Shown here: positions 4,135 through 23,055 of the stretch, piece by piece | Numbering within the stretch: position 1 is the first letter of the stretch | How the letters are laid out: every line of letters starts with the position of its first letter | Source: Beijerinckiaceae bacterium | GTDB taxonomy: Bacteria; Pseudomonadota; Alphaproteobacteria; Rhizobiales; Beijerinckiaceae | Assembly: GCA_037446355.1 (NCBI GenBank) | Contig: JBBIIT010000003.1 | Location: 22,751-86,750 of the forward strand | Direction of reading: 5' to 3' | Length of the DNA: 64,000 nucleotides | Translations under genes and position numbers: made by a program | The notes under the pieces: model-generated | What the model was told of the DNA's origin: nothing | Seen by the model: the letters and a program-made list of their open reading frames with translations, nothing else | The model's database searches: none

Positions 4135-4436
4135 CGAAGTCGAGCGCGAAGCCGTCGTCAAATTGCGTGCGCGCCACCTTCTGCGGCTACCGCACGAACT
4201 GCGGGCAATTCCGGGGATCCAGGACTTTAGGGCGACGGCGAGGTCGTCCGCTTTCGTGCGAGGTCCGCCGCGAGTTCCGGCCGCTCTATAAGAACGCAAC
4301 AAATTCAATCTCATGAGACGGCATTACGAATTCGTTAACACTGATTTACATTGGCCAACTAAATATGCTAGCGATGAGCGACAATGCAAAATGCAAACAA
4401 ATGCCGCGATGGCCAAGGGTCATTTGGGGGCCAGGG

Positions 4437-5756
4437 ATGCGTCGTTCGTCTAGGATTTTGGAAATCGCGGTGCTGGCGAGCGTCAGTTTCGGCGGAACAG
4501 TCGCGGTTCGCGCGCAGAATGCGAGCAATGCCGCGCCGGCCTTTGACTGGACCGGATTTTATATCGGCGGCCACATCGCGGAGGATTTCACCAGCACGCT
4601 TTATAAGCGTCCTTTAGATCCGTCGCTCGCCGACACGACGATCGGCTCGATTGGCGACAAGGCGGGCGTCGGCGCCTCCGTCGGATTTAACTACCAGTTT
4701 TCGCGATGGGGGGTCGTCGGCCTCGAAGCGACGGAAACGTGGATGGACGCGCCAGTGCGCGAACTCGGTTCTTCCAACGATTTTCTTGAACATATCGATT
4801 CTGTCGCGGCCGTGAGCGCGCGCGCGGGCCTGCTCGTTCGGCCGGACACGATGGTGTTCGGTTCGGTCGGGCCGGCTTGGATGCGGGTCAATGGCTTCAA
4901 GGGATTTGGCCAATCGATGAACGCCATCGTGCCCGGCGTTCAGCTCGGCGCGGGCTTCGAGACGTTTATCACTCGCAACGTCTCCCTGCGCGTCGAGGGT
5001 TCATATACCGGCGCCACTCAAGCGCTGGTGTTGAATAATTCCTTCGATCACTACTTGCCGTCGATCCTTCAAGTCCAGTTCGGCGCCGAATATAAGTTCG
5101 ATGCGCCGGGCGGCTGGGGTTTCAAAGACGTCGCCGTATCGGATGCTGTCGGCGCGCCGCCGAAATGGACGGGGTTCGAAGTCGGCGGGTTTGCTTCGGT
5201 GAACGGCAATCAAATGGGGTATTCGGACCTCAACCAGGGTGATTCCGGTCCCTATACCCGGTTCGGGATCGGCGGCGGCGCATTCGTCGGCGCAAACTAC
5301 CAGCTCAACGACCGCTTTGTCGTCGGCGCCGAACTCAGCGGAAACTACAATCATGCGCGCCTAGTGAACGCCGCCGGCACGAACGGCTATCTCGGCCCCC
5401 TCTTCGATTTCGCGACGATCGAGAATTTCATGGCCCTGACCGGACGGGTCGGCGCGCTTCTTTCGCCCGGCACGCTCATCTACGTCAAAGCCGGCGGCGC
5501 CTGGGTCCAGACGACGACCGATTTCGGTTACTGGAACAATGTCGCTCCGAACTCGACAGGTTCGCGGACCATGGGCGGCTATCAGGTCGGTTTGGGCGAT
5601 GAGACTTTTATCACGTCGAACGTGAGCTTGCGGTTCGAGACAATTTACACGCACCCCAGCGGCACGATCAGTTTGAACGGTAGCGTCTTTCCGAACCAAT
5701 TCGCGCTGCGTCCGGCCGTTCTTTCCGCGACCAGCGGCGTAGCCTATCATTTTTGA
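4437..5756 (+). CDS. Outer-membrane protein with two tandem Omp25/RopB-like beta-barrel domains
   Basis: Signal peptide ending AVRA-Q. Two similar halves begin DWTGFYIGG and KWTGFEVGG, each with GxxxGxNYQ, xRxGxL...TxxY and LRxE motifs; terminal YHF. ATG 4437 chosen over upstream in-frame starts. Confidence 0.8.
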   Translation: MRRSSRILEIAVLASVSFGGTVAVRAQNASNAAPAFDWTGFYIGGHIAEDFTSTLYKRPLDPSLADTTIGSIGDKAGVGASVGFNYQFSRWGVVGLEATETWMDAPVRELGSSNDFLEHIDSVAAVSARAGLLVRPDTMVFGSVGPAWMRVNGFKGFGQSMNAIVPGVQLGAGFETFITRNVSLRVEGSYTGATQALVLNNSFDHYLPSILQVQFGAEYKFDAPGGWGFKDVAVSDAVGAPPKWTGFEVGGFASVNGNQMGYSDLNQGDSGPYTRFGIGGGAFVGANYQLNDRFVVGAELSGNYNHARLVNAAGTNGYLGPLFDFATIENFMALTGRVGALLSPGTLIYVKAGGAWVQTTTDFGYWNNVAPNSTGSRTMGGYQVGLGDETFITSNVSLRFETIYTHPSGTISLNGSVFPNQFALRPAVLSATSGVAYHF

Positions 5757-5763
5757 CGGGGTC

Positions 5764-5800
5764 GGCCGAAGTCTGCGCCCGGGCGCTCTGGACTTTGGCC
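5764..5800 (+). terminator. GC-rich stem-loop after the OMP gene (possible terminator or mRNA-stabilising hairpin)
   Basis: GGCCGAAGTC pairs with GACTTTGGCC (one G-U pair) around an inner palindrome GCGCCCGGGCGC; the U-tract is weak. Confidence 0.35.
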
Positions 5801-5880
5801 GTCTTGTGTGCGTTTTCGTGTCGTGACTTTGGTCAATGAGCCGCGCCGCCGCGCACGAAAACTCCGGAGCGAGACTGCCC

Positions 5881-6198
5881 ATGGATAAGACGCCTGCGCC
5901 TTCGGACAGTTCCGCCGTTTCGTCGGATTCGTCGCGGTCCGCCTCCGTGCGTTGGAACGATTCGACGATGGCCACTCACTTCGCAAACGTGGTGAATGTG
6001 CAGAGCACGCGCGAGCAAGTGGACTTGTTTTTTGGCTTGAACCGAACCTGGAACTCCGGTGGCGACGCGCAAGTGACGGTCGATCTGGCGAATCGCATTA
6101 TCCTGACGCCGTTCGCGGCGAAGCGGCTTCTCAGCGTTCTCGGCGGCGTCCTGCGCGAATACGAAGGCCGCTACGGAGCGCTCGATCTCGATCGGTAA
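5881..6198 (+). CDS. DUF3467-family protein
   Basis: STMATHFANVVNVQSTREQVDLFFG and RIILTPFAAKRLLSVL match this family as I recall it; GGAG upstream of ATG 5881. Confidence 0.7.
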   Translation: MDKTPAPSDSSAVSSDSSRSASVRWNDSTMATHFANVVNVQSTREQVDLFFGLNRTWNSGGDAQVTVDLANRIILTPFAAKRLLSVLGGVLREYEGRYGALDLDR

Positions 6199-6204
6199 GC
6201 AGCG

Positions 6205-8070
6205 TTGAACGGCCCTTCGCACAACTGGTCCGAACTGGCGCGGACCGAAGACGCCGGCTCGGCGGCGGGGCGGGACGCCGGATTGTGGAAGCGCCTTGGC
6301 GAGGAAGCCGAACTCGCCGATATCGTCCAAGTCTGGCTGACGTTGCAATGCCAAATGATCGCCGGCGCCGCGCGGGGCGTAGTCTTGCTGCCGGGCGCGG
6401 CCGCGAACAGTTTCGATGTCGCCGCCATATGGCCGGAGGGTTCGGCGCGGTCCTCGACGCTGGCGGAGATCGCGGAACTCGCGCTGCGTGAAAAACGTGG
6501 CGTCGCGGGCGGCGAAGGCGGATCCGGGAGCGGGCAAGTTGCGTTCCCGATTCTGCTCGAGGGGGAGTTGAAGGGCGCGGTCGCCGTGGCGCTGCAAAAC
6601 GCCCGAGGCGACGACCCCAAGAACGCTCTGCGCCAATTGCAGTGGGGGGTCGCTTGGATCCGCGAGAAGCTGGAGCGCCGGCGCGTCGCCGGGTTGGACC
6701 GCCTGCTCGGCAAATCGCGCGCGGCGCTGGACCTGCTGGGCGACGCGCTTGGCCGCGAGGGTTTTGAAGCCGCGGCGATGGCGACGGTCACAGGCCTGGC
6801 GGTCCGCTGCCAATGTTCCCGGGTGAGTCTGGGCGTGCGACGCGGGCATTCGGTCGTAGTGAAGGCCATCTCGCATAGCGCGCAGTTCGGGCGTCGGATG
6901 ATGCTGGTCAGCGGGCTCGCAGCGGCGATGGACGAAGCGCTCGATCAGCGTTGCTTGATCCTTTATCCTGCTCCGGATGAACAGATGCTGGCGACGGCCG
7001 CCCATGCCGAGCTTTCGCGCGCACAGAACGACGGGCATGTCCTGACGATCCCGATGCTCGCCGCGGACAGCTTCGTCGGCGCAATGTCGTTCGAACGCCC
7101 CGCCGACGCGCCCTTCGATCAGAATACGATCGATCTGCTCGAACTCGCGGTGTCGATCGTCGGACCGATTCTGGAGGAGAAGCGTCGCAACGATCGCTGG
7201 CTGATCGCGAAGGCTGGAGAGAGTTTGCGCGTTCAGCTCGCGCGCCTGTTCGGTCCGGGCCATCTCGCGCGCAAGTTGGTCGCGATCGCCTCGATCGCGG
7301 CGGCCCTGTTCCTCTCGCTGGCGCGGTCCGAATACAAGGTCAACGCGGAATCACAGATCGAGGGCCTGATCCGTCGCGCTGTCGTGGCCCCCTATGACGG
7401 CTACATCAAGGACGCGCTGGCGCGCGCCGGCGACAGCGCGAAAGAGGGCGAGGTGCTCGCCGTTCTCGAGGACCGCGACTTGTTGCTCGAACGCCTGAAA
7501 TGGGTGACGGAGCGGCAGCAGCGCCTCTATGAATACGACAAGGCGCTCGCGGCCAGACAACCCGCCGTGGTCAATGTCATTCGAGCGCAAATCGATCAGG
7601 CGGACGCGCAGATCAAGCTGATTGACGAGCAAATCGCGCGCGTCAAACTGCGTTCGCCGATCGACGGTCAGATCGTCTCCGGCGACCTGAGCCAACTGAT
7701 CGGCACGGCGGTTCAGCGCGGACAGACATTGTTCGAGATCGCGCCGTTGGAAGTGTATCGTATCATTCTCGACGTCGACGAACGCGAAGTCGCGGAAATC
7801 GAGCCGGGTCAGCGCGGCCATCTCGTTGTTTCCGCTTTGCCGACGCGCCAGATGCCGTTTGTCGTCGACAAGGTGACGCCGATCGCCGAGGTGCGCGGCG
7901 GCAGAAATGTGTTCCGCGTCGAAGGACGGCTGACCGAAAATCCCCCTGAACTGCGCCCGGGCATGGAAGGCGTCGGAAAGATCGAAATTGGCGAGCGAAA
8001 CATCGCCTGGATCTGGCTGCATCAGTTGATGGACGGGCTGCGTCTGTGGTCGTGGCGCTGGTCGACGTGA
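6205..8070 (+). CDS. GAF-domain-containing HlyD/membrane-fusion protein
   Basis: Two GAF-like segments (VAFPILLEGELKGAVAV; LTIPMLAADSFVGAMSFER), a TM helix (LVAIASIAAALFLSL), a lipoyl half-motif (VVAPYDGYI...GDSAKEGEVL), a coiled coil and LRSPIDGQIVSGDL. TTG start. Confidence 0.85.
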   Translation: MNGPSHNWSELARTEDAGSAAGRDAGLWKRLGEEAELADIVQVWLTLQCQMIAGAARGVVLLPGAAANSFDVAAIWPEGSARSSTLAEIAELALREKRGVAGGEGGSGSGQVAFPILLEGELKGAVAVALQNARGDDPKNALRQLQWGVAWIREKLERRRVAGLDRLLGKSRAALDLLGDALGREGFEAAAMATVTGLAVRCQCSRVSLGVRRGHSVVVKAISHSAQFGRRMMLVSGLAAAMDEALDQRCLILYPAPDEQMLATAAHAELSRAQNDGHVLTIPMLAADSFVGAMSFERPADAPFDQNTIDLLELAVSIVGPILEEKRRNDRWLIAKAGESLRVQLARLFGPGHLARKLVAIASIAAALFLSLARSEYKVNAESQIEGLIRRAVVAPYDGYIKDALARAGDSAKEGEVLAVLEDRDLLLERLKWVTERQQRLYEYDKALAARQPAVVNVIRAQIDQADAQIKLIDEQIARVKLRSPIDGQIVSGDLSQLIGTAVQRGQTLFEIAPLEVYRIILDVDEREVAEIEPGQRGHLVVSALPTRQMPFVVDKVTPIAEVRGGRNVFRVEGRLTENPPELRPGMEGVGKIEIGERNIAWIWLHQLMDGLRLWSWRWST

Positions 8071-8077
8071 GCCCACG

Positions 8078-10225
8078 ATGAGCCGCTCGCTGTTCAGCAG
8101 TTCATGGTATCGCGTTTCCGGTCTGAAGCCGCGCGTACGTTCGCACACGATCATTCATCGCCAAGTGTTCCGCGGCAAGGTCTGGTATGTGCTTCAGGAT
8201 CCGCAGTCCGGCCGATTTCACTCGCTGTCCGAGCTTGCCAACCTGATGGTCTGCCTGATGGACGGGCGGCGAACCGTTCAGGACATCTGGGATGCGGCGG
8301 GGCGCCAGTCCAGCGACGATCCGCCGACGCAGGATGAGACCATTCAGCTCCTCGCCCAGCTTCATAACTCCGACCTGTTGCAAGGCGAGTTTCCGCCGGA
8401 TTTCGACGAGATGGCCCATCGCGCAGAGACGGCCAATCAGCGCCGACTGGTCCAGCAGCTGCGTAACCCGATGGCGGTGCGAGTGCCGTTGTTCGACCCT
8501 AATCGCTTTCTCGACAAAACGCTTCCGCTTGTACGTCCATTGTTCACGACGGCAGGATTTATCGCTTGGCTCGCACTTGTGCTGACAGGGGTCGTGCTCG
8601 CCGCTTTGCACTGGCCTGAACTCACGAGCGACGTTTCCGATCGCGTGCTGACTGCGGAGAACGTGGCGGTCATCATGGCCGTCTATCCGATCGTGAAGAG
8701 CCTGCACGAACTCGGTCACGCCTACGCGACCAAGATTTGGGGCGGCGAGGTCCATGAAGTCGGCTTTATGCTGCTCGTGTTCATACCAGTGCTCTATGTC
8801 GACGCTTCGGCGTCCGCGGCGTTTCGACAAAAGTCGCGGCGCATTGTGGTCGGCGCCGCGGGCATTTTGGTGGAAATGGCGCTGGCGGCCCTCGCGACCC
8901 TAATTTGGCTACAGGGGAGCCCCGGATTGGGTCGAACGGTTGCGTTCAACGTGATGCTAATCGGCGGCGTTTCGACGCTGCTGTTCAATGGCAATCCGCT
9001 GCTGCGCTTCGACGGCTACTACATATTCTCGGATCTGATAGAAATTCCCAACCTTGCCGGCCGCGCCAACGCCTATGTTTTCTACCTCCTCCAGCGTCAT
9101 CTGTTCAGGGTTGACGACGTCGAGACCCCGATCGTGACGCCGAGCGAACGCAAGTGGCTACTGGGTTACGCAGTGCTTTCGTTTGCATATCGAATGCTGG
9201 TTTCGCTGGCGATCGCCCTGTTTCTGGCCACGAAGCTTCCGGCGATCGGGCTTGTCATGGCGTTTTGGTCCCTGACCGCCATCGCGGTTCTGCCGGTGTT
9301 CAAGGGTGTCAAGTATCTCGCCTCGAATCCTAAGTTGAACGGTCAGCGCCGCCGCGCCGTTGGCGTCGTCGCGGGCCTGTCGGCTCTCGTCGCGATTGTG
9401 TTCTTCCTGATTCCGCTGCCCTATTCTACGATAGCCGAGGGAGTCGTCATCGTCCCCGATCAGTCGGAGGTGCGTGCGAAAGCCGACGGATTCGTCGACA
9501 CGGTCGCGGCGGCTGACGGAGAACGCGTCGAGCCAGGCCGAACGCTCGTGGTGCTGGAAGATCCGATTCTGAAAGCCAAGGTCGCCGTGATCGAGGCGCA
9601 ACTGGAAGAGACCCGCCAGCGTTTGGAGGCGGTTCGCGTGCTCGACCGCGTGCAAACGGAAATGTTCCAGGAGCAGGCTGCGAATTTGGCCGAACGGCTT
9701 TCCGTCGCGCGTAAGCAATTGGCCAATCTGGACGTCACGTCGGATCAAGCCGGACGGTTCGTCCCCGCGCATTCGAACGATATGACCGGCAGGTTCGCGC
9801 GGCGCGGCGAATTGCTCGGCTACGTCGTGTCGGATGCGAACCCGGTGGTCCGCGTCTTGGCGCCGCAATCCGACGTTGAGTTGATTGAAAATCCCGACAC
9901 AACGGTGGAAGCGCGCCTGGTCGAGGACGTCGCCCGCGCGCGCGCGGCGAAAATCATCCGGTCCGCGCCCGGCGCGCAGGTCGAAGTGCCGAGCCTCGCG
10001 CTGACGACTCGAGGCGGCGGCGCCATCGCGCTCGATCCGTCCCGCACGCAACGGCCGCAATCGCTGTTCAGCTATTTCCAGCTCGACGTCGAGTTGCTCG
10101 AGCCCAGCGACTCCGGCCGGTTGGGATCGCGCGTCTACGTTCGTTTCAAGCACGGCGACGAGGCTTTGGCCTGGCGCATGTTGCGCTCGGCGCGACAGTT
10201 TTTCCTCGGCCAGTTCCATGTCTGA
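8078..10225 (+). CDS. PqqD-like domain / M50 (site-2) zinc metallopeptidase / HlyD-like fusion membrane protein
   Basis: N-terminal LMDGRRTVQDIW...LLAQLHNSDLL (PqqD-like winged helix). HELGH at 8704-8718 and NPLLRFDGYY at about 8993 supply the M50 zinc ligands. Several TM helices; C-terminal VRAKADGFV lipoyl/hairpin region. Confidence 0.85.
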   Translation: MSRSLFSSSWYRVSGLKPRVRSHTIIHRQVFRGKVWYVLQDPQSGRFHSLSELANLMVCLMDGRRTVQDIWDAAGRQSSDDPPTQDETIQLLAQLHNSDLLQGEFPPDFDEMAHRAETANQRRLVQQLRNPMAVRVPLFDPNRFLDKTLPLVRPLFTTAGFIAWLALVLTGVVLAALHWPELTSDVSDRVLTAENVAVIMAVYPIVKSLHELGHAYATKIWGGEVHEVGFMLLVFIPVLYVDASASAAFRQKSRRIVVGAAGILVEMALAALATLIWLQGSPGLGRTVAFNVMLIGGVSTLLFNGNPLLRFDGYYIFSDLIEIPNLAGRANAYVFYLLQRHLFRVDDVETPIVTPSERKWLLGYAVLSFAYRMLVSLAIALFLATKLPAIGLVMAFWSLTAIAVLPVFKGVKYLASNPKLNGQRRRAVGVVAGLSALVAIVFFLIPLPYSTIAEGVVIVPDQSEVRAKADGFVDTVAAADGERVEPGRTLVVLEDPILKAKVAVIEAQLEETRQRLEAVRVLDRVQTEMFQEQAANLAERLSVARKQLANLDVTSDQAGRFVPAHSNDMTGRFARRGELLGYVVSDANPVVRVLAPQSDVELIENPDTTVEARLVEDVARARAAKIIRSAPGAQVEVPSLALTTRGGGAIALDPSRTQRPQSLFSYFQLDVELLEPSDSGRLGSRVYVRFKHGDEALAWRMLRSARQFFLGQFHV

Positions 10226-12224
10226 CGTGGCGCTGTCCGTACCGGAGCGGTTGTTGAATTTGCCCGCACAGCGGCTTTGCCCGGAAGCGCCGGAACGGAA
10301 GGAAACCAATCTCGAGGGACTAGCGGCGTCGCTCCATTCGCGAGCGGTCGCAGCGATGTCGAGGCGGCGCGCACGATCGCTGCGCCGCATCCTCCCGCTT
10401 GTGAACGCTCATGAGGCCGAGTTCGCGGCCCTCTCCGACTTCGAATTGTTGCCGCGCGCTCGGGAGATAGCAATCGACCTCCGACGCGAGGCCGATTTCT
10501 CCGACGCATTAACGGGGCGCGCGTTTTGCCTGATCCGCGAATTGTCGGCGCGCATTCTCGGCAAGCGGCACTTCGACGTCCAGATCATCGGCGCTTTCGC
10601 TATGGTCAAGGGTATGCTCGCCGAAATGGCGACCGGGGAAGGCAAGACGCTGACCGCGACCCTGGTGGCGGGAACCGCGGGGCTCGCGGGCATTCCCATT
10701 CATGTGGTGACGGTGAACGACTATCTCGCTAGACGCGACGCGGAACTCATGCAGCCCCTCTATCGGGCCTTGGGTTTGAGCGTCGGGATCGTCGTCAGCG
10801 GCCAAAGCTTGCACGAGCGGCAAGCTGCGTATGCATGTGACATCACCTATTGCACCAATAAGGAATTAACCTTCGATTACTTGCGCGATCGCATGTTGCT
10901 CGGCCAAACGGTCGGCGATCTCAAGCTTAAGCTGGAGACGCTTCACAGCGATGCGCCTCGCGCGCGCGAACTGCGAATGCGCGGGCTTCATTTCGCGCTG
11001 GTCGACGAAGCCGACAGCGTGCTGGTCGACGAGGCGCGCACGCCGCTGATCATCTCCGGAGGCGCTGGCGCCGCTATTGGCGAAGAGACCGTCGGCAGCG
11101 CGCTGAAACTCGCATCCGCGATGGAGGCGGGCGTCGATTTCATCGTCTCCACCGAGGATCGAAGGATTTTCCTGACCGTGGCCGGCCAGTCGCGCGTCGA
11201 GCAGTTCGCGAAATCGCGCGCCGGACATTGGCGCAGCGTCGTCAGTCGAGAAGAGCTGGCGCGCCAAGCGCTTGCCGCCCTTCACCTGTTCCACAAGGGC
11301 GAGCAATATGTCGTCGCCGATGGCAAGGTGCAGATCGTCGATGAATATACCGGCCGCATCATGCCGGACCGGCTGTGGAGCGACGGGTTGCACCAGATGA
11401 TCGAACTCAAGGAAGGCTGCGCACTATCGGCGCGGCGCGAAACGCTCGCGCGCATAACCTATCAGCGCTTCTTCCGCCGCTATCGCCGACTGGCCGGCAT
11501 GAGCGGCACGATGCAGCCCGTGGCGGCGGAACTCTGGCGCGTTTATCGGCGTCGCGTAGTGACGATCCCGACCGCGAAGCCGGTGTTGCGTATCCATCGC
11601 CCCGATGTGGTGCTTGCGACCCAGGATGAAAAGTGGCGACGCATCGTCGAGCGCGTGGCGGCCCTCAATGCCGTCGGCGCTCCCGTGCTTATCGGTACGC
11701 GATCCGTCACCGCCTCCGAGCGCGCGAGCGAGATGCTAACCGCGGCGGGCTTTCGACACGAGGTTCTCAATGCGCTGCAAGACAAGCGCGAGGCGGAGAT
11801 CATTGCCGAAGCAGGGCGAAGCGGCCGGATAACGATCGCGACCAACCTCGCGGGACGCGGCACCGACATTCATCTGGGCGAGGGTGTGGCCGCGCTCGGC
11901 GGGCTGCACGTCATCATGACCGAACGCCACGACGCGCGCCGCATCGATCTTCAGCTTGCGGGCCGCGCCGGAAGGCAGGGCGAGCCGGGGTCGTTCGAGG
12001 CGATCCTATCGCTGGAGGATGACTTGATGAACAATGAGAATGGCGTCGCCTTGTCCGGGCTGGCCAAGTGGCTGGCGCGCTATGCGGGCGCCTGGGCGGG
12101 GCGGGGCGCCGCCGAATATGCGCAGAAGCGCGCCGAACGGCTGCACGCGCGGATGCGCGCCGACTTGCTCCGCTCTGATCGATGGCGAAAGCAGACGCTC
12201 GCCTTCACCGGACGGCCCGAGTGA
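10218..12224 (+). CDS. SecA-like DEAD-motor ATPase paralogue, C-terminally truncated (668 aa)
   Basis: MATGEGKT (10626), VTVNDYLARRD, DEADSVLVDEARTPLIISG, IVDEYTGRIMPDRLWSDGLHQ, ATNLAGRGTDI and QLAGRAGRQGEPG. The protein ends shortly after the start of the helical scaffold and overlaps the M50 gene by 8 nt. Confidence 0.9.
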   Translation: MSDVALSVPERLLNLPAQRLCPEAPERKETNLEGLAASLHSRAVAAMSRRRARSLRRILPLVNAHEAEFAALSDFELLPRAREIAIDLRREADFSDALTGRAFCLIRELSARILGKRHFDVQIIGAFAMVKGMLAEMATGEGKTLTATLVAGTAGLAGIPIHVVTVNDYLARRDAELMQPLYRALGLSVGIVVSGQSLHERQAAYACDITYCTNKELTFDYLRDRMLLGQTVGDLKLKLETLHSDAPRARELRMRGLHFALVDEADSVLVDEARTPLIISGGAGAAIGEETVGSALKLASAMEAGVDFIVSTEDRRIFLTVAGQSRVEQFAKSRAGHWRSVVSREELARQALAALHLFHKGEQYVVADGKVQIVDEYTGRIMPDRLWSDGLHQMIELKEGCALSARRETLARITYQRFFRRYRRLAGMSGTMQPVAAELWRVYRRRVVTIPTAKPVLRIHRPDVVLATQDEKWRRIVERVAALNAVGAPVLIGTRSVTASERASEMLTAAGFRHEVLNALQDKREAEIIAEAGRSGRITIATNLAGRGTDIHLGEGVAALGGLHVIMTERHDARRIDLQLAGRAGRQGEPGSFEAILSLEDDLMNNENGVALSGLAKWLARYAGAWAGRGAAEYAQKRAERLHARMRADLLRSDRWRKQTLAFTGRPE

Positions 12225-12232: not shown

Positions 12233-13051
12233 TCAGGTCTTGCTGAAAGCCGCGCAGAGATATGTCAAGTGGCCGTTGGCGTGCAGCCAGCGCAAGAGAT
12301 GGCCAGCCGACGGCCGGCGAGGAAACGTTCCCTCGTTTTGCGGCGCGGTGACACGATAGCTTGGCAGGGTCGCCCGCGTCGCGTCGAGCCGCCGCTCGAG
12401 TCGGAGGCCTGCTCGGGCCGCCGCCGAAATTAGCTCCTCCGGTTCGATCCACAATTGCGGCCAGGGTCCAAATTCGCTGCGCAAGATCGCCTCGATGTCG
12501 GGGACGGGCGTCGGAGCTTCGGCCCCGGGCGCGCGCAGCAGGATGTCGGACACCGCAAGCCGGCCGCCCGGACGCAGCACGCGCGCGACTTGATGGAGAA
12601 ACGCCTCGCGAGATCGAAAATGAAACATCGCCTCGATACAGATCGCGCGGTCGAAGCTCGCGGCTTGCAATGGCAACGCGCAGGCGTCGGCCTCGATCAG
12701 AGCGAGCGATCCGTCCCGCATCGGCAATGAACGGCAAATATCGAGTTGGCGCGGGTCGATATTGACCCCGGTGCGCCGCATTTCGCGCCATTGCCCGATC
12801 GCCTCCAGCGCACCGCCGAAGCCGCAACCGACGTCGAGGACATCCTGTTGGTCGCGAAGCGCCGCGAGCTCGATCAGCAAGTCCGTAAGTCGCGCCTGCG
12901 CGTCTTCGAATTCCTGCGCCGAGCAGGGCGTCGAAAGCGGCGGCGGGTCGTCCCAATATCCAAGATGCACGTCGCGCCCGGCATGGCCGCGCCGAAAACC
13001 TTCGATCAGGCCGTCGAAATAGGACGGAACGCGCGGCAATGTCAGCCCCAT
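12233..13051 (-). CDS. Class I SAM-dependent methyltransferase (VHLGYW type, RebM/sterol-MT-like)
   Basis: DVHLGYWD, motif I VLDVGCGFGG, ADACALP, FDRAICIEAMFHF and LRPGGRLAVSD. Start overlaps the stop of the upstream oxygenase gene. Confidence 0.85.
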   Translation of the reverse strand: MGLTLPRVPSYFDGLIEGFRRGHAGRDVHLGYWDDPPPLSTPCSAQEFEDAQARLTDLLIELAALRDQQDVLDVGCGFGGALEAIGQWREMRRTGVNIDPRQLDICRSLPMRDGSLALIEADACALPLQAASFDRAICIEAMFHFRSREAFLHQVARVLRPGGRLAVSDILLRAPGAEAPTPVPDIEAILRSEFGPWPQLWIEPEELISAAARAGLRLERRLDATRATLPSYRVTAPQNEGTFPRRPSAGHLLRWLHANGHLTYLCAAFSKT

Positions 13052-13860
13052 CCGTAAACGCCGAAACCGTCGCTTCGCTCCGCCATGAAACTGCAAGCGG
13101 TCCAGCGCGTCGTCGCGCCGATCACGGGCGTGACGCGGTGCAGGTGATGGCCGGAGTTGAATACGATGAGGTCGCCGGGATCGAGCGTGAACGCGACCTT
13201 CTCCGCGGCGTCAAGGTCCGCGCGGACCGCGTTGCGGTTACTGTCCACGATGCGTTGGCCCGGCGCTTCGGGGTGAATGTTGAAAACCTCCAGCGATCCG
13301 CCCGAGTCGGCCTTCGAAAAGGCGATCACGAACGAGAACAATCGTGGACGGATCATAGGCGTAAGCAGCCGATAGCTTGGCCGCGCCGCCTGCTCGTCGT
13401 CGAAATGGGCGGGAATGTATCCGCCCGGCAAATGGGCGCGGATCGTTGTGAACATATATTGGGATCCCGGCGTTGGCCCCGGCGGCGCGGAATAGGGACG
13501 CCCCTCGTCGAGCGAGGACAGCAGCGCGGTCACGCGCGGCTCCAGCGCGAGCCGCCCGCCCGCCAACCGCGCGAGGCCGTCGCGAAATCCCGGCGTCGCC
13601 GCGAAATAGTCGCGCAGGTCCGGATGGGCCAGATTGAGGTTCGCGCCATAGAAGAAGGCGGCGAACTTGGCGGGAAACTCGGTCTTGATAAGCCCGTGCC
13701 GCTCCGCCGCAAGTTCCGCGCAGATAGTGTCGCAAAGTTCGCGCTCGATCACCCGCTTGACCACGACGCCGTCGATCGCGCGCGCGCGCAAGCGCGACAG
13801 AACGTCCGCGTGCTGGGGCGCCTGACTAGCGTCGAAGGAGACCGTGCGAAAAAATGTCAT
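13042..13860 (-). CDS. 2OG-Fe(II) oxygenase
   Basis: HxD (IPAHFDDE), GGSLEVF, PGDLIVFNSG, HLHRVTPV and RWT: the facial triad plus the 2OG-binding Arg. Confidence 0.8.
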   Translation of the reverse strand: MTFFRTVSFDASQAPQHADVLSRLRARAIDGVVVKRVIERELCDTICAELAAERHGLIKTEFPAKFAAFFYGANLNLAHPDLRDYFAATPGFRDGLARLAGGRLALEPRVTALLSSLDEGRPYSAPPGPTPGSQYMFTTIRAHLPGGYIPAHFDDEQAARPSYRLLTPMIRPRLFSFVIAFSKADSGGSLEVFNIHPEAPGQRIVDSNRNAVRADLDAAEKVAFTLDPGDLIVFNSGHHLHRVTPVIGATTRWTACSFMAERSDGFGVYGWG

Positions 13861-13874
13861 GCGTTGCGTCCGCC

Positions 13875-15212
13875 CTACCTCGCCCCCGGCGGGGGAAACA
13901 CCCAGAAAAACTCGCCCGATCGTCCGCCGACTCGCGCCGCCTCGTCCGTGAGGAACGCGGCCTCTCGCTCGATCGCCCCGCGCGGCCAGCCGAGGCACGA
14001 GCGCATCTTGAGCGATGTCGGATCGTAGTCCAGCAGGTGCTGCGGCGGCGAGCGAACCATCAGCGCCGAGGGCAGTACGACGCAATGATAGACGCGCAGC
14101 GCACACGGCATGCGACGCGCGCGCTCGAAATTGCGACGAAAGCCTTCGGCGTTATCGCCGGGAAGCCCCATGATGATCTCGACCGCCAGCGTCGCGACCT
14201 CGCCGAGTTCGCGCACGTTGTTGTCGAATTTCGCTTCGTCGTATTTGCGGTCGACGTTGGCGAGAACGTCATTGTCGAAGGATTGCAGGCCGATGCCAAC
14301 ATAGGCGTTGCCGACGCTGGCGAGAAAGTCGATATGCTCGCGCCGCACTTTGGCGGGATAGACTTCGCAGATCAGACCACGATCGTTCAGAAATCCGGTT
14401 CGCTGTTGAGCCGCGCGCAGGTTCTGGAACGCGGCCTGATTGAGGTTGAGCCCGGCGTCCGCCAACAGCGCGCCTGTTAGGCCCATCCGTACCATGGAGT
14501 CGAATTCAACTTCCAGGCTCTCTCTCGTGCGCACGCGTTTGGGCGATTCCATCGTGCCCCATTCGCAAAACGAACAGGTGAACGGACAGCCGCGATAGGT
14601 CTGCAACACACCCAGCCCGCCGCGCGGCACCAGGTTCATTTCATAGGGCGACGCGAGAAGGTTGAGATCGCCGAGCGGACGGGCTCGTGTCTCTTTCCAT
14701 GCGCCGTCGACACGGAAGGCCACGCCGGAAATCTGCGCGAGTCCCGCCGGCGCGCGGTCCCGCAATTCGACGATCTCGACAAACGTGTCCTCCCCTTCGT
14801 TGATGACGAGGAGATCGACGGCGGCGCCCTTAGCCCTGTGCGGCTCGTGGTCGAGCATCACGGGGCGAGCAGAAGGCCCGCCAAATACAATCAGGCGCGA
14901 GGGATCGGCTTTCTTCAACAGACCGACCACGTCGAGGAAGAATGGAAACGACCAGAAGAAGGCTGAAATTCCAACAATGTCGGGGTCGAAACGGGCGACC
15001 TCGCCCGCGACCAGCTCGCTCGACTTGTCCCCTGGCGTCAGGTCCCACACCCGCACGTCGAGGCCGGGAAGGGCCGCGCGGCGGATCGCGGCTTCGACCA
15101 TGTAAAGACCAAGATTCGGGATGAACTGCGGCATCGCGGGGTCGCGGTCGGGATAGCGCGCTAGCAACGCGACCCGGCGCCCCGCGCGCGGCGTCTGGCG
15201 CGGAAGGCTCAC
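13875..15212 (-). CDS. Cobalamin-binding radical SAM protein (paralogue 1)
   Basis: B12-binding domain (FDPDIVGISAFFWS, LIVFGGPSAR, LLVINEGE), CPFTCSFC and IIMGLPGD. GTG start at 15212 forms a GTGA overlap with the upstream paralogue. Confidence 0.85.
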   Translation of the reverse strand: MSLPRQTPRAGRRVALLARYPDRDPAMPQFIPNLGLYMVEAAIRRAALPGLDVRVWDLTPGDKSSELVAGEVARFDPDIVGISAFFWSFPFFLDVVGLLKKADPSRLIVFGGPSARPVMLDHEPHRAKGAAVDLLVINEGEDTFVEIVELRDRAPAGLAQISGVAFRVDGAWKETRARPLGDLNLLASPYEMNLVPRGGLGVLQTYRGCPFTCSFCEWGTMESPKRVRTRESLEVEFDSMVRMGLTGALLADAGLNLNQAAFQNLRAAQQRTGFLNDRGLICEVYPAKVRREHIDFLASVGNAYVGIGLQSFDNDVLANVDRKYDEAKFDNNVRELGEVATLAVEIIMGLPGDNAEGFRRNFERARRMPCALRVYHCVVLPSALMVRSPPQHLLDYDPTSLKMRSCLGWPRGAIEREAAFLTDEAARVGGRSGEFFWVFPPPGAR

Positions 15213-16549
15213 GCCGGAACCGCCGTCACGCCCGGGCCGAGGCTGCGTGGAAACGACCACCAGAACCGACCGGAATTGCCGCCTGCTCGGCGTGCCGCGC
15301 GATCGAGTTCCTCGCGCATCGCGCCGATCGCGTCCGCGCTCCAGCCAAGGCACGATTTCATAGCGAGATCGACGGGATGAAATTCGACATTCCACTCCGG
15401 GAGCGCGCGCGTCATCAGCGCATCGGGCAGCACGAGGCAATGATAGACGCGCACGCTCGCGGGAAGGCTTAGCGCATAGCCAAGCGTGCGGCGAAATCCT
15501 TCGGGCGTGTCGCCGGGCAAGCCGAATATGATCTGCAATTCGATGTTGGTTATAGCGGCAAGCTCGCGCACGATGCGTTCGAATCGCGGCGAGTCCGAGG
15601 GCCGTTGATGCAGCCTCAGCACTTCCGGGTCCATCGACTGCATACCGACGCCGAGATAGGCGGGCCCGATCTCGCCGAGGAATTCGAAATGTTCGTCGCG
15701 CACGACGGAGGGATAGATTTCGGCCCAAAACAGCGCCTCACTCAGCGCGCCGGTGCGACGATTGGCTTCGCGCAAATTGCGGAAGGCCTGGAGATTGAGA
15801 TTGAGGCCGGCGTCGAGCAGGAATACCGCCGGCGGCCGCAAGGCTTGAAAGGCCTGCAATTCCCGGGTGAGGTAGTCGACGGAGAAAGTCGACTTGAACT
15901 TGTCGCTCGCGCCCCATTCGCAAAAGCGACACGATAGCGGACATCCGCGATAACTCTCGACGTAGGCGACCTCATTGGGCGCGCATAGACCTATCTGAAA
16001 CGGCGAGGGGATTTGGTTGAGGTCCGCGGCGGCGACGCGGTTGGGAATTTTTCGCCATCCGGCCGCGGCGCGCACGGTGGCGCCGGGCACAGTGGCGAGG
16101 GTTTCGCGCGTGAGTTCGGGCAGGTCCGCCATTTCGCGGAATATGGCTTCGCCGTCGCCCTCGACGATCGCATCGAGATAGCGCGCGGGGTCGCGATAGG
16201 CGTCCAGGTCGAACAGCGCGCGCCGTGCCGAAGGACCGCCGAAAACGATGAGGCAACCGGGTCGCCTGCGTCGTATCTCGCGCGCCACGTCGATGAGACA
16301 GGCGGTCGACCAGACATAAATGGAGAAGCCGACAATCTCGGGTTCGAAGGCCAGAATTTCGCGCGCGTAGCCCGCGACGTCATCTCGTCCGAGATCGATC
16401 AGCTCGACAATATGCGCCGGGCGTTCCGGGTCGCCGACAACGGCCGCCTGAATTCGGCGCACCCCGTAGCTCGGCAGTTCCAGGCGCCCAAGTTCTTCGC
16501 CATCGGGGCGCGGCGTCAGGCAGGCCAAGACTATCCGTCGCGACGCCAC
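15209..16549 (-). CDS. Cobalamin-binding radical SAM protein (paralogue 2)
   Basis: FEPEIVGFSIYVWS, LIVFGGPSAR, IVEGDGE, CPLSCRFC and IIFGLPGD; GGGAG RBS before the GTG. Confidence 0.85.
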   Translation of the reverse strand: MASRRIVLACLTPRPDGEELGRLELPSYGVRRIQAAVVGDPERPAHIVELIDLGRDDVAGYAREILAFEPEIVGFSIYVWSTACLIDVAREIRRRRPGCLIVFGGPSARRALFDLDAYRDPARYLDAIVEGDGEAIFREMADLPELTRETLATVPGATVRAAAGWRKIPNRVAAADLNQIPSPFQIGLCAPNEVAYVESYRGCPLSCRFCEWGASDKFKSTFSVDYLTRELQAFQALRPPAVFLLDAGLNLNLQAFRNLREANRRTGALSEALFWAEIYPSVVRDEHFEFLGEIGPAYLGVGMQSMDPEVLRLHQRPSDSPRFERIVRELAAITNIELQIIFGLPGDTPEGFRRTLGYALSLPASVRVYHCLVLPDALMTRALPEWNVEFHPVDLAMKSCLGWSADAIGAMREELDRAARRAGGNSGRFWWSFPRSLGPGVTAVPA

Positions 16550-16707
16550 TTAATCTCCCGATCCATGCGGATGCCGGCGAGGGTAAGGCGAAGGCTCGGC
16601 CCGCGCAAGGCGCCGACCGCCGCCATCGGGTTTTGCATCGCTCCAGGCCGTGCTAATCACAACCCAGTCGCCGCGGCGCGGCGGATGGACCCAACGAGAC
16701 CCAGCGA

Positions 16708-17571
16708 ATGCTCCCTATTTCGACGCCGCGAAGCCTGCGAGGCTTTTACGTCCTGTCGGCCCTGGCGGCGGCGCCGGGAATGGCGCTAGCCGCACCGGGA
16801 GCATTCGATTGCGTCATGGAGGCCTCGCTGATCGTGAAAGTCGGATCCCCAGTCGCAAGCATCGTCGACGATGTTCAAGTAGATCGCGGAGCGGTGGTCA
16901 AAAGAGGGGACGTGATCGCGCACATCGCCTCTAAGGTCGAGGAATCGGCGGTTGCATACAACAAATTGCGGTCCGAGAGCACGGCGGAAATCGAGGCCAA
17001 GGCGGCGATCCTCGTACAAAAATCCGGAGTGCTCCGCCGAAAGCTTGGTTTGGCCAAGGAGCATGTCGGCGCTTCGCAGGACGTCGAGAACGCGACAGCG
17101 GAGTTCAACGTCGCGAGTCAGGAGCTGGAACTCGCCAAGCTCAATCATCACATGGCCGAAATAGAGTACGAGCGGTCCAAAGCCGAGATGGAGCTGCGCA
17201 CCATCCGAAGCCCCATCGACGGCATCGTGACCCAGCGTTCGATCGGGCCGGGCGAATATTTCCATCAAGAATCGTCGATCGCCACCATCGCTAGGGTCGA
17301 TCCTCTTTACGTCGAAACCTTTCTGCCGGTCAGCCTCTACCAACAGGTGAAGATCGGCGACGTCGCGCTGGTCCATCCCGCCGAGCCGATCGGAGGCGAG
17401 CGCGAAGCGAAAGTCACGGTCGTCGACCAGGTGTTCGACGCGGCGAGCGGCACCTTCGGGGTGCGTTTGGCGCTGCCTAACGCGGACGACGGGCTTCCTG
17501 CGGGACTACGGTGCAAAGTGACTTTCGGCGAAACAAGTGCGGCGCAAGCCTCGACGACGCCGAAACCCTAA
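16708..17571 (+). CDS. Membrane-fusion (RND/HlyD periplasmic adaptor) protein
   Basis: Hydrophobic N-terminus, FDCVMEASLIVKVGSPVASIV, VDRGAVVKRGDVIA, coiled coil, IRSPIDGIVTQR and VFDAASGTFGVRL. Confidence 0.85.
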   Translation: MLPISTPRSLRGFYVLSALAAAPGMALAAPGAFDCVMEASLIVKVGSPVASIVDDVQVDRGAVVKRGDVIAHIASKVEESAVAYNKLRSESTAEIEAKAAILVQKSGVLRRKLGLAKEHVGASQDVENATAEFNVASQELELAKLNHHMAEIEYERSKAEMELRTIRSPIDGIVTQRSIGPGEYFHQESSIATIARVDPLYVETFLPVSLYQQVKIGDVALVHPAEPIGGEREAKVTVVDQVFDAASGTFGVRLALPNADDGLPAGLRCKVTFGETSAAQASTTPKP

Positions 17572-17577
17572 TTCGAG

Positions 17578-18606
17578 ATGAGCAGTCGCGACTATCTCCG
17601 CGTTAACGCCTACTTGACCACGGAGATGGACGCACGCGCGATCCGCAGCGCGCTCGATCTTGGAGTCATCGACACGCTCGCCGAACTTGGGCCCAGCGCG
17701 ATCGACGCGCTCGCGCGGTCGCATCGAATCCATCCGACGGGACTGAAGCTGCTCGCCCAGATGCTTGCGGCGAATGGGGTGGTCCGCTTCGAGGGCGGGA
17801 GCATGGAATTGACGCCGGCGTTCCTGAGCGCGCTGCGGTTTCGCGATCTCCTGGAGTCCCGAATCGCCTTTGCGGACCTAGTTTGGCCAGACATCCACAC
17901 GCTATTCACGCCGCTATTGAACGACTTGCCGCAATTCATGGCGCGCTCAAAAGTGTTCGACCTGTTTCGCTACGATCGCTGCTTCGATCTGACCCCGGAG
18001 AACATCGAGGCGACGCAGAGCTGGACGAAATTCACGACCTGCCTGACCAAGTACGAGGCGGGGCCCGCGTTGGACGAAGTGGGACTCGACGGCGTCGACG
18101 ATCTCATTGACATGGGCGGCAATACCGGCGAATTCGCGTTTCGCGCCTGCCAGCGCAGATCGACGCTGCAAGCGACCGTGGTCGATCTTCCCGTTGTTTG
18201 CGAACTGGGCCGTCGGCGCCTAGCGGGCAGCGACGAGGCGCGGCGCATCGGCTTCTTCCCGACCGACATGCGCGGCGGCGCATTGCCCGCGCCCGCGGAC
18301 CTCGTCTCCTTCAAGTCGGTGCTGCACGACTGGCCCGACGCCGAAGCGCGCCACTTGTTGACGCGCGCCGCGGATCTGGTGCGTCCGGGCGGGCGGCTGT
18401 TGATCTTCGAGCGGGCGCCGATTGACGTCAGCAAGGGTCGTATTCCCTATGCGATGGCGCCCGACCTGGTATTCCTGCATTTTCTGCGTCCTGCGGACCT
18501 CTACTTGCGGACATTGCGCGAGCTTGGGTTTGCGATCGTCACGCATAAGCGCATGGCGCTCGACATGGACTTTCACCTTATCGTCGCGGCGAGACCGCAG
18601 CGCTAG
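17578..18606 (+). CDS. O-methyltransferase family protein (dimerisation domain plus SAM domain)
   Basis: N-terminal AIRSALDLGVIDTL dimerisation helix-turn-helix; DMGGNTG, VVDLP, FKSVLHDWPD and PGGRLLIFE. Confidence 0.85.
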   Translation: MSSRDYLRVNAYLTTEMDARAIRSALDLGVIDTLAELGPSAIDALARSHRIHPTGLKLLAQMLAANGVVRFEGGSMELTPAFLSALRFRDLLESRIAFADLVWPDIHTLFTPLLNDLPQFMARSKVFDLFRYDRCFDLTPENIEATQSWTKFTTCLTKYEAGPALDEVGLDGVDDLIDMGGNTGEFAFRACQRRSTLQATVVDLPVVCELGRRRLAGSDEARRIGFFPTDMRGGALPAPADLVSFKSVLHDWPDAEARHLLTRAADLVRPGGRLLIFERAPIDVSKGRIPYAMAPDLVFLHFLRPADLYLRTLRELGFAIVTHKRMALDMDFHLIVAARPQR

Positions 18607-18639
18607 CGCGCGCGACGATCTCAATCAGAGGGCTGATCG

Positions 18640-20166: not shown

Positions 20167-20957
20167 TGTCCGGCGCCGATTTGATCGAACTGGTGAAGGC
20201 GCTCAGGGCGCCCTACGGCTTGGAGCGATCCGTCAAGATCGAGTCCGGCGTGTTGTTCGACGACCGTTTTCTGATCAGCGTCCATCGCGATGCGTTGGGC
20301 GTCGATCCTCTCGGAAAGCTCGGGGCGATCGTCGCCGCTCAGGGCGCCCCGCGAGCGGTTGTGCGCGCTTTGGCGCAAGCGCTGCAAGGCGCCGATGTCA
20401 TTCATTTCGGACACGAGACGGACGCCCTCGGCGCTGTCCGCAAGATTTATTTCGAATATGCGGCGGCGGCTCGGCGATCGATGGCGCAAGATCGGCCGGC
20501 GCTGGTTCATTTCGCCTACAAGTGGAAGCCCGGCCGCGAACATGGATTCGCGCAAACGCGATATACTTGGGCGCCGGCGCCGACGCGGCGGGAACTTGAG
20601 GGTCGCGTGAACGCCTTGCTGCCGGTCGGATCGGCGCCGAGGGGCCGCAAAACGGCGCTCGCTTTGCTGGAACTGGCTTGCCGCGCGGCGGAAGCTCGCG
20701 AAATATTGCTGATGGAGGTCGACGAGCCCGGCAATGCCAGGCGTTCTCTCGATATCAACCTGTATGAGGCCGAGCTGCGTCTGCGCGATGTCGGAGATCT
20801 CGTCGCGACGATAGCGAAAGATTTCGCAATTCCCGGAGAACGACGCCAGGCGGTGTTCGCCGATCGCGGCGATCTCCTGCTCGGCCATCTCTCGGCCGGC
20901 GTCGGGCGTGATGGACAGGAATTCGTGACACTATATTATGGAATTGAAGCGCATTGA
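20166..20957 (+). CDS. Hypothetical protein, possible cyanobactin F-family (PagF/LynF-like) prenyltransferase homologue
   Basis: GLERSVKIESGVLFDDRFL resembles the PagF segment I recall as SLEASCKIESDKLIASRFL; C-terminal VTLYY; five beta-hairpin-like segments separated by helices. TGATG coupling to the halogenase. Confidence 0.5.
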   Translation: MSGADLIELVKALRAPYGLERSVKIESGVLFDDRFLISVHRDALGVDPLGKLGAIVAAQGAPRAVVRALAQALQGADVIHFGHETDALGAVRKIYFEYAAAARRSMAQDRPALVHFAYKWKPGREHGFAQTRYTWAPAPTRRELEGRVNALLPVGSAPRGRKTALALLELACRAAEAREILLMEVDEPGNARRSLDINLYEAELRLRDVGDLVATIAKDFAIPGERRQAVFADRGDLLLGHLSAGVGRDGQEFVTLYYGIEAH

Positions 20958-20967
20958 CGAGGCCGCG

Positions 20968-21840: not shown

Positions 21841-21867
21841 GCCGGGCGCAAACCATCGGAGTCATGC

Positions 21868-22836: not shown

Positions 22837-23055
22837 AGGTTTTTGAAAAGCGACCCCCTGCGGCTGTTGAAATATAGCGCGGCGAATCGACGTGAGTCGT
22901 CTTTATTCAAACTGCTGAATTAAGAAGACAATGGGTCAAGCGCGCCGGGAGTTATTATAGGACTGCGATAAGATTAGCTACAAATTGCTTTTCCATATCC
23001 GTGTTGCTTGTGCCGATGATCGCCGCGAAATTTCGATCCGATCAAATTCTGTCAA

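Follow-up and report, generated by a model that had tools for sequence, protein, structure and literature searches.

A 715-amino-acid (aa) protein that joins a PqqD-like recognition domain, an M50 (site-2 protease) core and an HlyD-like periplasmic adaptor in one chain is, on the comparative sequence evidence, the leading candidate for the component that would read, and probably remove, the N-terminal LEPR-XLL tag of giant bacterial proteins during their export. Its gene lies in a 64,000-nucleotide (nt) stretch of the genome of a Beijerinckiaceae bacterium (contig JBBIIT010000003.1; hereafter the window), within a row of genes that also encodes a small DUF3467 protein, an adaptor with a GAF domain (GAF-HlyD), a truncated SecA paralogue and a short HlyD-type adaptor (Table 1). 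Further along the same strand, a single open reading frame (ORF) encodes a giant protein, the presumed cargo, that begins with a basic leader and a LEPR-XLL tag. We call the 715-aa protein M50-HlyD. The comparative evidence strongly backs a link between this predicted protease and the leader, and M50-HlyD very probably belongs to a machine that exports LEPR-tagged cargo.

The reading frame of M50-HlyD is open throughout, its GC content at third codon positions (0.75) is the same as that of the neighbouring genes, and the genome holds a single copy. [quoted passage not shown] Two AlphaFold2 models, one of the full-length protein built on 40 homologues (mean predicted local distance difference test score (pLDDT) 84.5) and one of aa 1-445 (pLDDT 83.5; predicted template modelling score (pTM) 0.78), agree on the order of these elements, and both contain a linker helix at aa 109-129. 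The best NCBIfam model for the protein is daptide_HExxH (NF041824), which aligns to residues 19-407 with an E value of 2.3e-44; the score of 152.1 bits lies below the 300-bit equivalog cut-off, and M50-HlyD is best regarded as a relative, not a member, of this family of daptide intramembrane metalloproteases. A sequence search of the Protein Data Bank (PDB) with the whole protein returned only a marginal match to the adaptor LipC.

The N-terminal domain matches the Pfam family PqqD (PF05402) over residues 37-101 with 27.1 bits, above the cut-off of 23.4. Its modelled structure is the winged-helix fold of an RRE, with strands at 25-31, 34-40/41 and 46/47-50 and helices at 52-60, 67-77 and 85-97. 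Foldseek searches with the model of aa 1-445 aligned this domain to the leader-bound lasso-peptide RRE TbiB1 (5v1u/5v1v; template modelling (TM) score 0.70-0.74) and to PqqD (5sxy; TM 0.68, root-mean-square deviation 2.9), as well as to the lasso B1 protein 6jx3 and the CteB RRE. Column identity in the alignment of homologues is 0.63 for the first 19 residues, 0.54 for the RRE and 0.47 for the adaptor domain; the higher conservation of the RRE relative to the adaptor fits a reader of a conserved ligand. To our knowledge, RRE folds are dedicated peptide binders, and the leader recognition that they carry out has until now been known from small RiPP peptides alone.

The membrane core carries a complete zinc site. 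H210, E211 and H214 of the HELGH motif, N304, and N306, P307, L308 and D312 of the NPLLRFDG motif are invariant in 40 homologues of 36-63% identity, which argues that catalysis is under selection. Membrane helices are modelled at 158-177, 193-220, 252-279, 284-304, 357-386, 388-416 and 424-443, with HELGH inside the helix 193-220, NPLLRFDG just after the helix 284-304 and a beta-hairpin at aa 228-241, after the HExxH helix. The top Foldseek match of the aa 1-445 model is the M. jannaschii site-2 protease (3b4r_A; probability 1.00, E 4.8e-3), with a TM score, normalised to the Foldseek target, of 0.49, which is modest but specific. Helix order, together with positively charged loops at aa 247-255 and 409-426, suggests that the N terminus is inside and the C terminus outside, with seven helices between them. 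This topology would place the RRE and the zinc site in the cytoplasm and the adaptor domain in the periplasm.

In the adaptor domain, an anchor helix (424-443) leads to a lipoyl/beta-barrel body with an alpha-hairpin at 496-519/524-549, and Foldseek with the full model returned MacA (3fpp, E 1.5e-11) and then MexA and AcrA (range 1e-11 to 1e-9). A preliminary description of this stretch had named a PqqD-like N-terminal segment, intact HELGH and NPLLRFDG zinc ligands and a C-terminal adaptor hairpin. All of its elements lie where it had placed them: the first now stands on a Pfam match above cut-off, a modelled fold and Foldseek matches to RREs, the ligands are invariant among homologues, and the hairpin is modelled within a MacA-like fold. 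It had also called the gene translationally coupled to that of the SecA paralogue. The stop codon of M50-HlyD (TGA, 10223-10225) does overlap the ATG of the SecA-like gene (10218) by 8 nt (ATGTCTGA), and because stop and start overlap in this way, coupling of the two genes is likely. An identical 8-nt overlap occurs in Methylobacterium and Terrihabitans loci, and the stop codon of the upstream GAF-HlyD gene lies 7 nt before the M50-HlyD ATG.

M50-HlyD belongs to a very large family. An exhaustive search of a library clustered at 50% identified 12,393 representatives at E<=1e-3, of which 4,438 also reach E<=1e-30, and nearly all of the best 150 are about 715 aa long and align from end to end. 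Public annotations call them 'PqqD family peptide modification chaperone', 'site-2 protease family protein', 'putative peptide zinc metalloprotease' or 'HlyD family efflux transporter periplasmic adaptor subunit'; the sequence family is already known, but without an assigned function. In a collection with one genome per species, at least 563 stretches encode a relative, and these come from Alpha-, Beta- and Gammaproteobacteria, Desulfobacterota, Myxococcota, Nitrospirota, Flavobacteriales and Sulfurovum.

For a comparison of gene neighbourhoods, 80 loci from many phyla were kept from these stretches. The order GAF-HlyD, M50-HlyD, SecA-like protein, short HlyD recurs in nearly all of them, frequently with a DUF3467 gene, and in most loci with full flanks an ORF of more than 1,500 aa adjoins the row. 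Every adjacent large ORF whose N terminus falls inside the locus opens with a basic leader and a LEPR-type motif, and the flanking giant starts with the tag in all nine loci that were checked by coordinates. In 20 loci the giant runs past the fetched DNA; LEPR-8K matches were found in all 20 of these genomes, nearly all of them in frames of 4,000-14,500 aa, and in none of 14 control genomes.

Tag and protease also co-occur at the level of whole genomes. Within a sample of 301 genomes spread evenly over the phylum, 88 carry the architecture and 50 have a LEPR match; 49 of the 50 LEPR-positive genomes carry the architecture, as against only 39 of the 251 LEPR-negative ones (Fisher p = 8.6e-31). 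The preliminary description had tied the protein to the giant and its leader from the window alone, and that tie is borne out by synteny, by the tagged neighbours and by co-occurrence. Some genomes encode several LEPR-tagged giants (six in G019 and three each in G017 and G009), with frames that reach 14,524 aa. A single machine may handle more than one cargo.

The giant protein of the window matches the NCBIfam model LEPR-8K (NF012209) with 21.9-25.2 bits, above the 17-bit cut-off, and is the single strong LEPR-XLL protein of its genome. Its first 53 residues include 13 lysines or arginines and 2 aspartates or glutamates. Aligning 28 cargo N termini on the motif gave the consensus [hydrophobic]-E-x-LEPRxLLSAD, a block of 12 residues that mostly holds 3.4-4.3 bits per position and falls to about 1.5 bits straight after the aspartate. 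The leaders ahead of the block are 9-91 aa long (median 40) and contain on average 8.75 lysines or arginines and 3.1 aspartates or glutamates, and none of their 12-residue windows is hydrophobic enough for the core of a Sec signal. Judged by sequence, leader and tag have the anatomy of a recognition element beside a processing or hand-over point, not that of a Sec or Tat signal.

Two further features of such N termini were observed. Some LEPR-tagged giants of Alpha- and Gammaproteobacteria bear a second conserved element, M-A-F-P-F (or MSYPF), at the extreme N terminus, 40-60 residues ahead of the LEPR block; it occurs in the window (24098-24112), at L002:16898 and in L042, L099 and L105, and as MSYPF in L093. 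Elsewhere in the same genome, outside the window, an open frame of 398 aa gives another LEPR-8K match, a weak one (C29:36714-36773; 16.4 bits, or 18.1 with neighbours), which may be a small tagged protein or a chance match.

Variants of the locus narrow down which component could read the tag. Seven loci have no SecA paralogue (L079, L080, L082, L075, L056, L062 and L077), and their genomes encode the housekeeping SecA only, in frames of 880-980 aa. In three of them (L079, L080 and L082) neighbouring proteins of 1,500-2,200 aa still begin ...EELEPRLLLSAD and M50-HlyD retains its RRE; no ATPase gene was found among the scanned flanking ORFs of L079 and L082. The persistence of both the tag and the RRE-M50-HlyD protein in the absence of the SecA paralogue implies that this paralogue is not the tag reader.

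A distant subfamily, at 26-28% identity (loci L108-L113; genomes G044, G179, G107 and G120), combines a GAF-HlyD of about 450 aa and an M50-HlyD of about 705-760 aa with TolC and has no SecA-like gene. Its M50-HlyD proteins exceed the Pfam cut-off for Peptidase_M50 (39.8 and 34.0 bits); Pfam finds no PqqD in their N-terminal domain, though this domain aligns to residues 31-150 of the window protein. In four of four loci, the adjoining large proteins start with a different form of the motif, LE(P/Q/R)Rx(M/L/A)FD(G/A)A(A/G). The form of the tag thus appears to track the protease subfamily, with the distant, SecA-less subfamily paired with the LExRxMFDGAA form.

We also considered a group of paralogues that seemed to lack the RRE (matches to residues 117-713). 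These were rejected as such: the RRE is encoded just upstream by an ORF of its own (143 aa), overlapping the beginning of an M50-HlyD ORF of 589 aa (L106:10793-11224(-) with 9069-10838(-); L107:4148-4579(+) with 4534-6303(+); two genomes of one genus). Gene order at these split loci is short HlyD, RRE, M50-HlyD, SecA-like protein, GAF-HlyD. The apparent RRE-less copies being split genes, the copies examined provide no natural control without an RRE, and in all of them the RRE seems to have been kept, either fused or as a small gene of its own. Across all variants, the only parts in common that face the cytoplasm would be the GAF domain and the RRE-M50 unit, and of these the RRE is the only one whose fold is known for leader-peptide binding. 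The link between protease and leader is sharpened by these three observations: the tag survives without the SecA paralogue, its form follows the protease subfamily, and the RRE is never lost.

We propose that M50-HlyD would be the central inner-membrane subunit of a conserved, type-I-like envelope machine that lacks an ATP-binding cassette (ABC) transporter. The other parts would be the DUF3467 protein, the GAF-HlyD adaptor, usually a truncated SecA motor, and the short HlyD adaptor, with TolC or, in this lineage, perhaps the OmpA-like barrel as the outer-membrane partner. The cargo would be proteins, mostly giant, with an N-terminal LEPR-XLL tag, here the 11,232-aa protein. The RRE would dock the tag consensus as an added beta-strand, in the manner of lasso B1 and PqqD with their leaders, and so bring the neighbouring stretch of chain to the M50 site at the inner leaflet, where the basic leader would be cut off during or after engagement. 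The C-terminal adaptor domain and the two other HlyD proteins would together build a periplasmic conduit, and the SecA paralogue, where present, would provide ATP-driven pushing.

On balance we favour this chain of steps as a whole, in which the RRE binds the tag, the M50 site cuts the leader, the adaptors form the conduit and the SecA paralogue pushes. That the M50 helices themselves form the pore is doubtful; the preliminary description had the protein form the inner-membrane channel, a possibility that had already been put forward in 2015 (PMC4452313). More tentatively, we suggest that the fusion of RRE, site-2 protease and HlyD domain reads and cuts the LEPR-XLL tag as the inner-membrane core of a distinct ABC-less secretion system. 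This system would be found across Proteobacteria, Nitrospirota, Desulfobacterota and Myxococcota and, going by the 2015 study of the gene row (PMC4452313), in Planctomycetes, Verrucomicrobia and Chlorobi as well. It would use two or more forms of the tag, paired with two protease subfamilies, and would supply the export route that has been missing for LEPR-tagged giants, perhaps also for the 20,000-36,000-aa proteins of Chlorochromatium.

Several observations count against this proposal. Of the genomes that bear the architecture, 39 have no match to the LEPR hidden Markov model (HMM); all four that were examined have a variant tag, which the 24-position HMM misses and which explains at least part of the 39. 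The tag of the giant in the window departs from the consensus: T stands in place of E at position -2, and N in place of S. Two of the three domains of M50-HlyD score below Pfam thresholds: Peptidase_M50 (PF02163; residues 208-390) reaches 23.2 bits against a cut-off of 27.2, and for HlyD (residues 462-557) the models HlyD_3 and HlyD_D23 reach 18.0 against 22.2 and 15.9 against 30, respectively; NCBIfam TIGR01843 gives 25.1 bits against a cut-off of 208. GAF-HlyD is as universal as M50-HlyD and has a cytoplasmic domain of its own, which makes it an alternative reader. Weak RTX-like repeats lie near the C terminus of the giant. Finally, the LEPRxLL giants of Chlorochromatium ran at their predicted sizes (bioRxiv 10.64898/2026.03.19.712371); the sizing method of that study is too coarse for a loss of about 60 residues.

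The main rival explanation keeps the contact between RRE and tag and alters its timing. Here the cargo would exit C terminus first or stall, the RRE would hold the tag at the inner membrane so that the giant becomes an anchored surface fibre, and the M50 site would later cut the tether to release the fibre or clear the spent leader, in a step gated by the GAF domain of the partner adaptor. Such repeats are associated, in classical type I secretion, with a signal at the C terminus and with export that starts from that end, and RseP-type site-2 proteases have been reported to clear remnant signal peptides. The repeats in the giant, the fusion of a GAF sensor domain to the partner adaptor in every variant and the dispensability of the motor in some lineages all suit such a tether, and the evidence on RRE and protease fits it equally well. 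A conserved N-terminal tag and a SecA-derived motor suggest N-first engagement instead, and a LapA-like retention module was not recognised; we give this explanation a minority share of our confidence, as a serious but less probable account. It is less probable again, and in our view unlikely, that another component reads the tag (the GAF domain, DUF3467 or the SecA paralogue), with the PqqD-like domain serving autoinhibition or assembly and the M50 domain acting mainly as a membrane platform or pore whose protease activity is kept for quality control. The SecA paralogue does retain a preprotein cross-linking domain, GAF-HlyD is found as widely as M50-HlyD, and the M50 protein has been proposed as a pore (PMC4452313). 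Set against this, variants without the SecA paralogue and DUF3467 still have the tag, RRE folds are, so far as is known, dedicated peptide binders and the N-terminal domain is structurally closest to RREs with bound leader, the RRE persists where it has been split off into its own gene, and the catalytic residues are invariant.

Two other roles fit the data poorly. The number of RiPP-type tailoring genes between exporter and giant, and a best sequence-family match to a daptide protease, might point to maturation and export of a small RiPP peptide modified by the radical S-adenosylmethionine (SAM) enzymes, halogenase and methyltransferases of the window, with the giant as an unrelated neighbour. 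We consider this very unlikely, since only a few alphaproteobacterial loci contain the tailoring genes, while loci from many phyla pair the exporter row with a tagged large protein; the daptide model, moreover, is matched at about half its cut-off (152 versus 300 bits). Least probable is regulatory intramembrane proteolysis, in which the M50 domain would cleave a membrane-bound regulator, as RseP and SpoIVFB do, and thereby switch on the gene of the giant. Such cleavage is the canonical role of bacterial site-2 proteases, and a GAF sensor is encoded next door, but neither an anti-sigma gene nor an extracytoplasmic function (ECF) sigma gene is among the Pfam matches of the window or of the annotated loci, and regulation would leave the fusion to an RRE and a periplasmic adaptor, and the strict pairing with the cargo tag, unexplained.

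The proposed reading and cutting of the tag has partial counterparts in known systems. In lasso-peptide maturation the B1 RRE is coupled, fused or split, to the B2 leader protease, as RRE and protease are here; among known structures, leader-bound TbiB1 fits the N-terminal domain of M50-HlyD best. The lasso protease is a soluble cysteine protease that acts on peptides of about 40 aa, whereas M50-HlyD is predicted to be an intramembrane zinc enzyme fused to an export adaptor, with a presumed substrate of up to about 15,000 aa. The membrane M50 proteases of RiPP pathways (the daptide family NF041824, YydH/LiaK-EpeP (NF058609), TglG and TmoG) have the same HExxH intramembrane metalloprotease core. 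The NF041824 alignment takes in both the N-terminal domain and the core of M50-HlyD, but this 379-position model ends at residue 407 and has no counterpart of the HlyD domain; NF058609 gives 43 bits against a cut-off of 225, and the substrates of these families are small peptides, unlike the presumed giant here. Membrane M50 proteases act in RiPP maturation (EpeP, TglG and TmoG), and in the case of EpeP both cleavage of the peptide and its export are attributed to the protease (PMC10885120).

Site-2 proteases proper (M. jannaschii 3b4r, RseP and SpoIVFB) have in common with M50-HlyD the membrane-helix motifs HExxH and NxxPxxxxDG, the beta-hairpin that follows the HExxH helix and, on the topology predicted here, an active site near the cytoplasmic leaflet. 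M50-HlyD differs in having no PDZ or CBS domains, in its extra helices, RRE and adaptor, and in the lack of an evident regulatory substrate. The preliminary description had the protein act like a peptidase-containing ABC transporter (PCAT). As a functional analogy this stands, since both would place a leader-specific peptidase on the cytoplasmic side within a polypeptide of the export machine; in composition it does not, because Pfam and NCBIfam scans found no C39, ABC membrane or ABC ATPase domain in M50-HlyD, and the double-glycine leader of PCAT substrates is also absent here. Any use of ATP would sit in a separate, SecA-derived protein that some variants lack.

Giant adhesins are exported by the type I system LapB-LapC-LapE, with a LapG/LapD release switch in which the protease is a periplasmic cysteine protease. 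The machine proposed here resembles it in its HlyD-type adaptors, in a giant, repeat-rich, RTX-like cargo, in a protease that would act on the N terminus of the cargo, and in TolC-family genes, which lie in the locus of one subfamily and elsewhere in the genome of the window. It differs in having no ABC transporter, three adaptors in place of one, an N-terminal signal and an M50 protease in the inner membrane.

The gene row has been described before. In an in silico study of 'secondary SecA_DEAD' proteins, Kamneva, Poudel and Ward (PLoS One 2015; PMC4452313) reported a row of GAF-HlyD, Peptidase_M50-HlyD, SecA_DEAD and HlyD/biotin-lipoyl proteins, exemplified by META1p2402-2399 of Methylobacterium extorquens AM1, in Proteobacteria, Nitrospirae, Chlorobi and PVC phyla, including Planctomycetes and Verrucomicrobia. 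In their proposal the SecA_DEAD protein acts as ATPase, and the M50 protein, whose similarity to M50 they noted as weak, is a possible pore; they called the biological role of the row 'completely unknown' (PMC4452313). PqqD, leader, cargo and LEPR are not mentioned there, and 'substrate' and 'cleav' are confined to general type I background and a reference title (PMC4452313). All four members are present in the window, and in the same order in the Methylobacterium locus L001; the row is the same as here, down to a SecA_DEAD protein without the C-terminal part of SecA, and what is new here is the RRE fold, the pairing with the tag, the SecA-less variants and the second subfamily. Because the gene row is already in print, the system is not categorically new. 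Our literature search found no paper that ties the protease to the LEPR-XLL tag and, from 2016 onward, no later work on the row apart from self-citation; an RRE-guided intramembrane protease as the tag reader of giant proteins is an unpublished variant of type-I-like secretion.

The tag itself has appeared in a different context. Chlorochromatium proteins of 36,806 and 20,647 aa have N-terminal LEPRxLL domains and no known transport signals, and SapC and TolC genes are their neighbours (bioRxiv 10.64898/2026.03.19.712371). A horizontally acquired secA, Cag_1676, belongs to the co-expression cluster of these giants (bioRxiv 10.64898/2026.03.19.712371); it may correspond to the SecA paralogue described here.

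Table 1. Features of the export row, the M50-HlyD protein and the giant protein in the window
Feature	Position (nt)	Strand	Basis and remarks
OmpA-like outer-membrane beta-barrel protein	4365-5756	+	OmpA_membrane match split over two stretches; immediately upstream of the export genes
DUF3467 small protein, first gene of the row	5836-6198	+	Pfam PF11950, 3.3e-16; upstream in many loci
GAF-HlyD adaptor	6205-8070	+	Pfam/NCBIfam; syntenic in nearly all loci
M50-HlyD, fusion of RRE (PqqD-like), M50/site-2 protease and membrane-fusion (HlyD-like) domains, 715 aa	8078-10225	+	Pfam, NCBIfam, alignment, AlphaFold2, Foldseek
Predicted cytoplasmic RRE/PqqD-fold domain (aa 20-105)	8135-8392	+	Pfam above cut-off; Foldseek to TbiB1, PqqD, lasso B1
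Seven-helix membrane core, M50/site-2-protease fold (aa 151-445)	8528-9412	+	AlphaFold2; Foldseek top match 3b4r
HELGH zinc-binding/catalytic motif (aa 210-214)	8705-8719	+	Invariant in alignments of 40 and 33 sequences
NPLLRFDG motif with third zinc ligand D312 (aa 306-313)	8993-9016	+	N306, P307, L308 and D312 invariant (40 and 33 sequences)
Predicted periplasmic membrane-fusion (HlyD/MacA-like) domain (aa 446-715)	9413-10222	+	AlphaFold2; Foldseek MacA, MexA, AcrA
Alpha-hairpin of the adaptor domain (aa 496-549)	9563-9724	+	AlphaFold2
Truncated SecA paralogue, 668 aa	10218-12224	+	DEAD motor, preprotein cross-linking domain, second nucleotide-binding domain
Short HlyD/RND-type adaptor, 287 aa	16708-17571	+	Profile match; synteny
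Giant protein, 11,232 aa, presumed cargo	24098-57796	+	ORF; LEPR-8K match
Leader of the giant and tag	24098-24286	+	aa 1-49 basic, without hydrophobic core; tag AFTPLEPRLLLNAD at aa 50-63, nt 24245-24286
Tag peptide sequence			RGRLAFTPLEPRLLLNADVL

Profile matches to the SecA paralogue (Table 1) stop near position 550 of the roughly 800-position SecA models. The genes that follow it encode, in order, a methyltransferase, a WelO5-like 2-oxoglutarate (2OG) oxygenase, two B12-radical SAM enzymes and the short HlyD adaptor, and then an O-methyltransferase, a tryptophan halogenase, two proteins without a recognised function, a radical SAM enzyme, SapC and the giant. In most other loci the short HlyD gene directly follows the SecA-like gene; here tailoring genes intervene. 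The short HlyD of L082 has a weak SPOR match, below threshold per stretch. Tailoring-type genes span 12233-23982, between exporter and giant, and a 2OG-Fe(II) oxygenase gene lies at 57855-58508. Methylobacterium loci L001 and L006, where SapC is also present, and locus L009 again have the genes for the O-methyltransferase, the halogenase, the two unassigned proteins and the radical SAM enzyme; L009 adds B12-radical SAM, WelO5-like and methyltransferase genes. The tailoring enzymes of the window may modify the giant itself.

The DUF3467 protein has no sequence relative in the PDB; a role as a chaperone for the cargo is conceivable. The OmpA-like protein is a possible outer-membrane partner in this lineage: a Terrihabitans locus encodes, in the same position (L002:6413-7681), a protein with two OMP_b-brl matches, and locus L009 matches the OmpA-like protein of the window by tblastn. 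In other lineages TolC takes this place; the three TolC (OEP) genes of the genome studied here all lie on other contigs. The scanned ORFs of the window do not make up a classical type I set of ABC transporter, membrane-fusion protein and TolC-family protein: the sole ABC match among them is an ABC ATPase gene cut at its 5' end (1-621), with an amidase gene and further genes between it and the row.

LEPR-XLL proteins are among the largest known bacterial proteins. If M50-HlyD reads and removes their tag, an orphan N-terminal motif would gain a function and an export route without an ABC transporter would be defined. RRE-guided proteolysis would then extend from small natural-product peptides to proteins of megadalton size.

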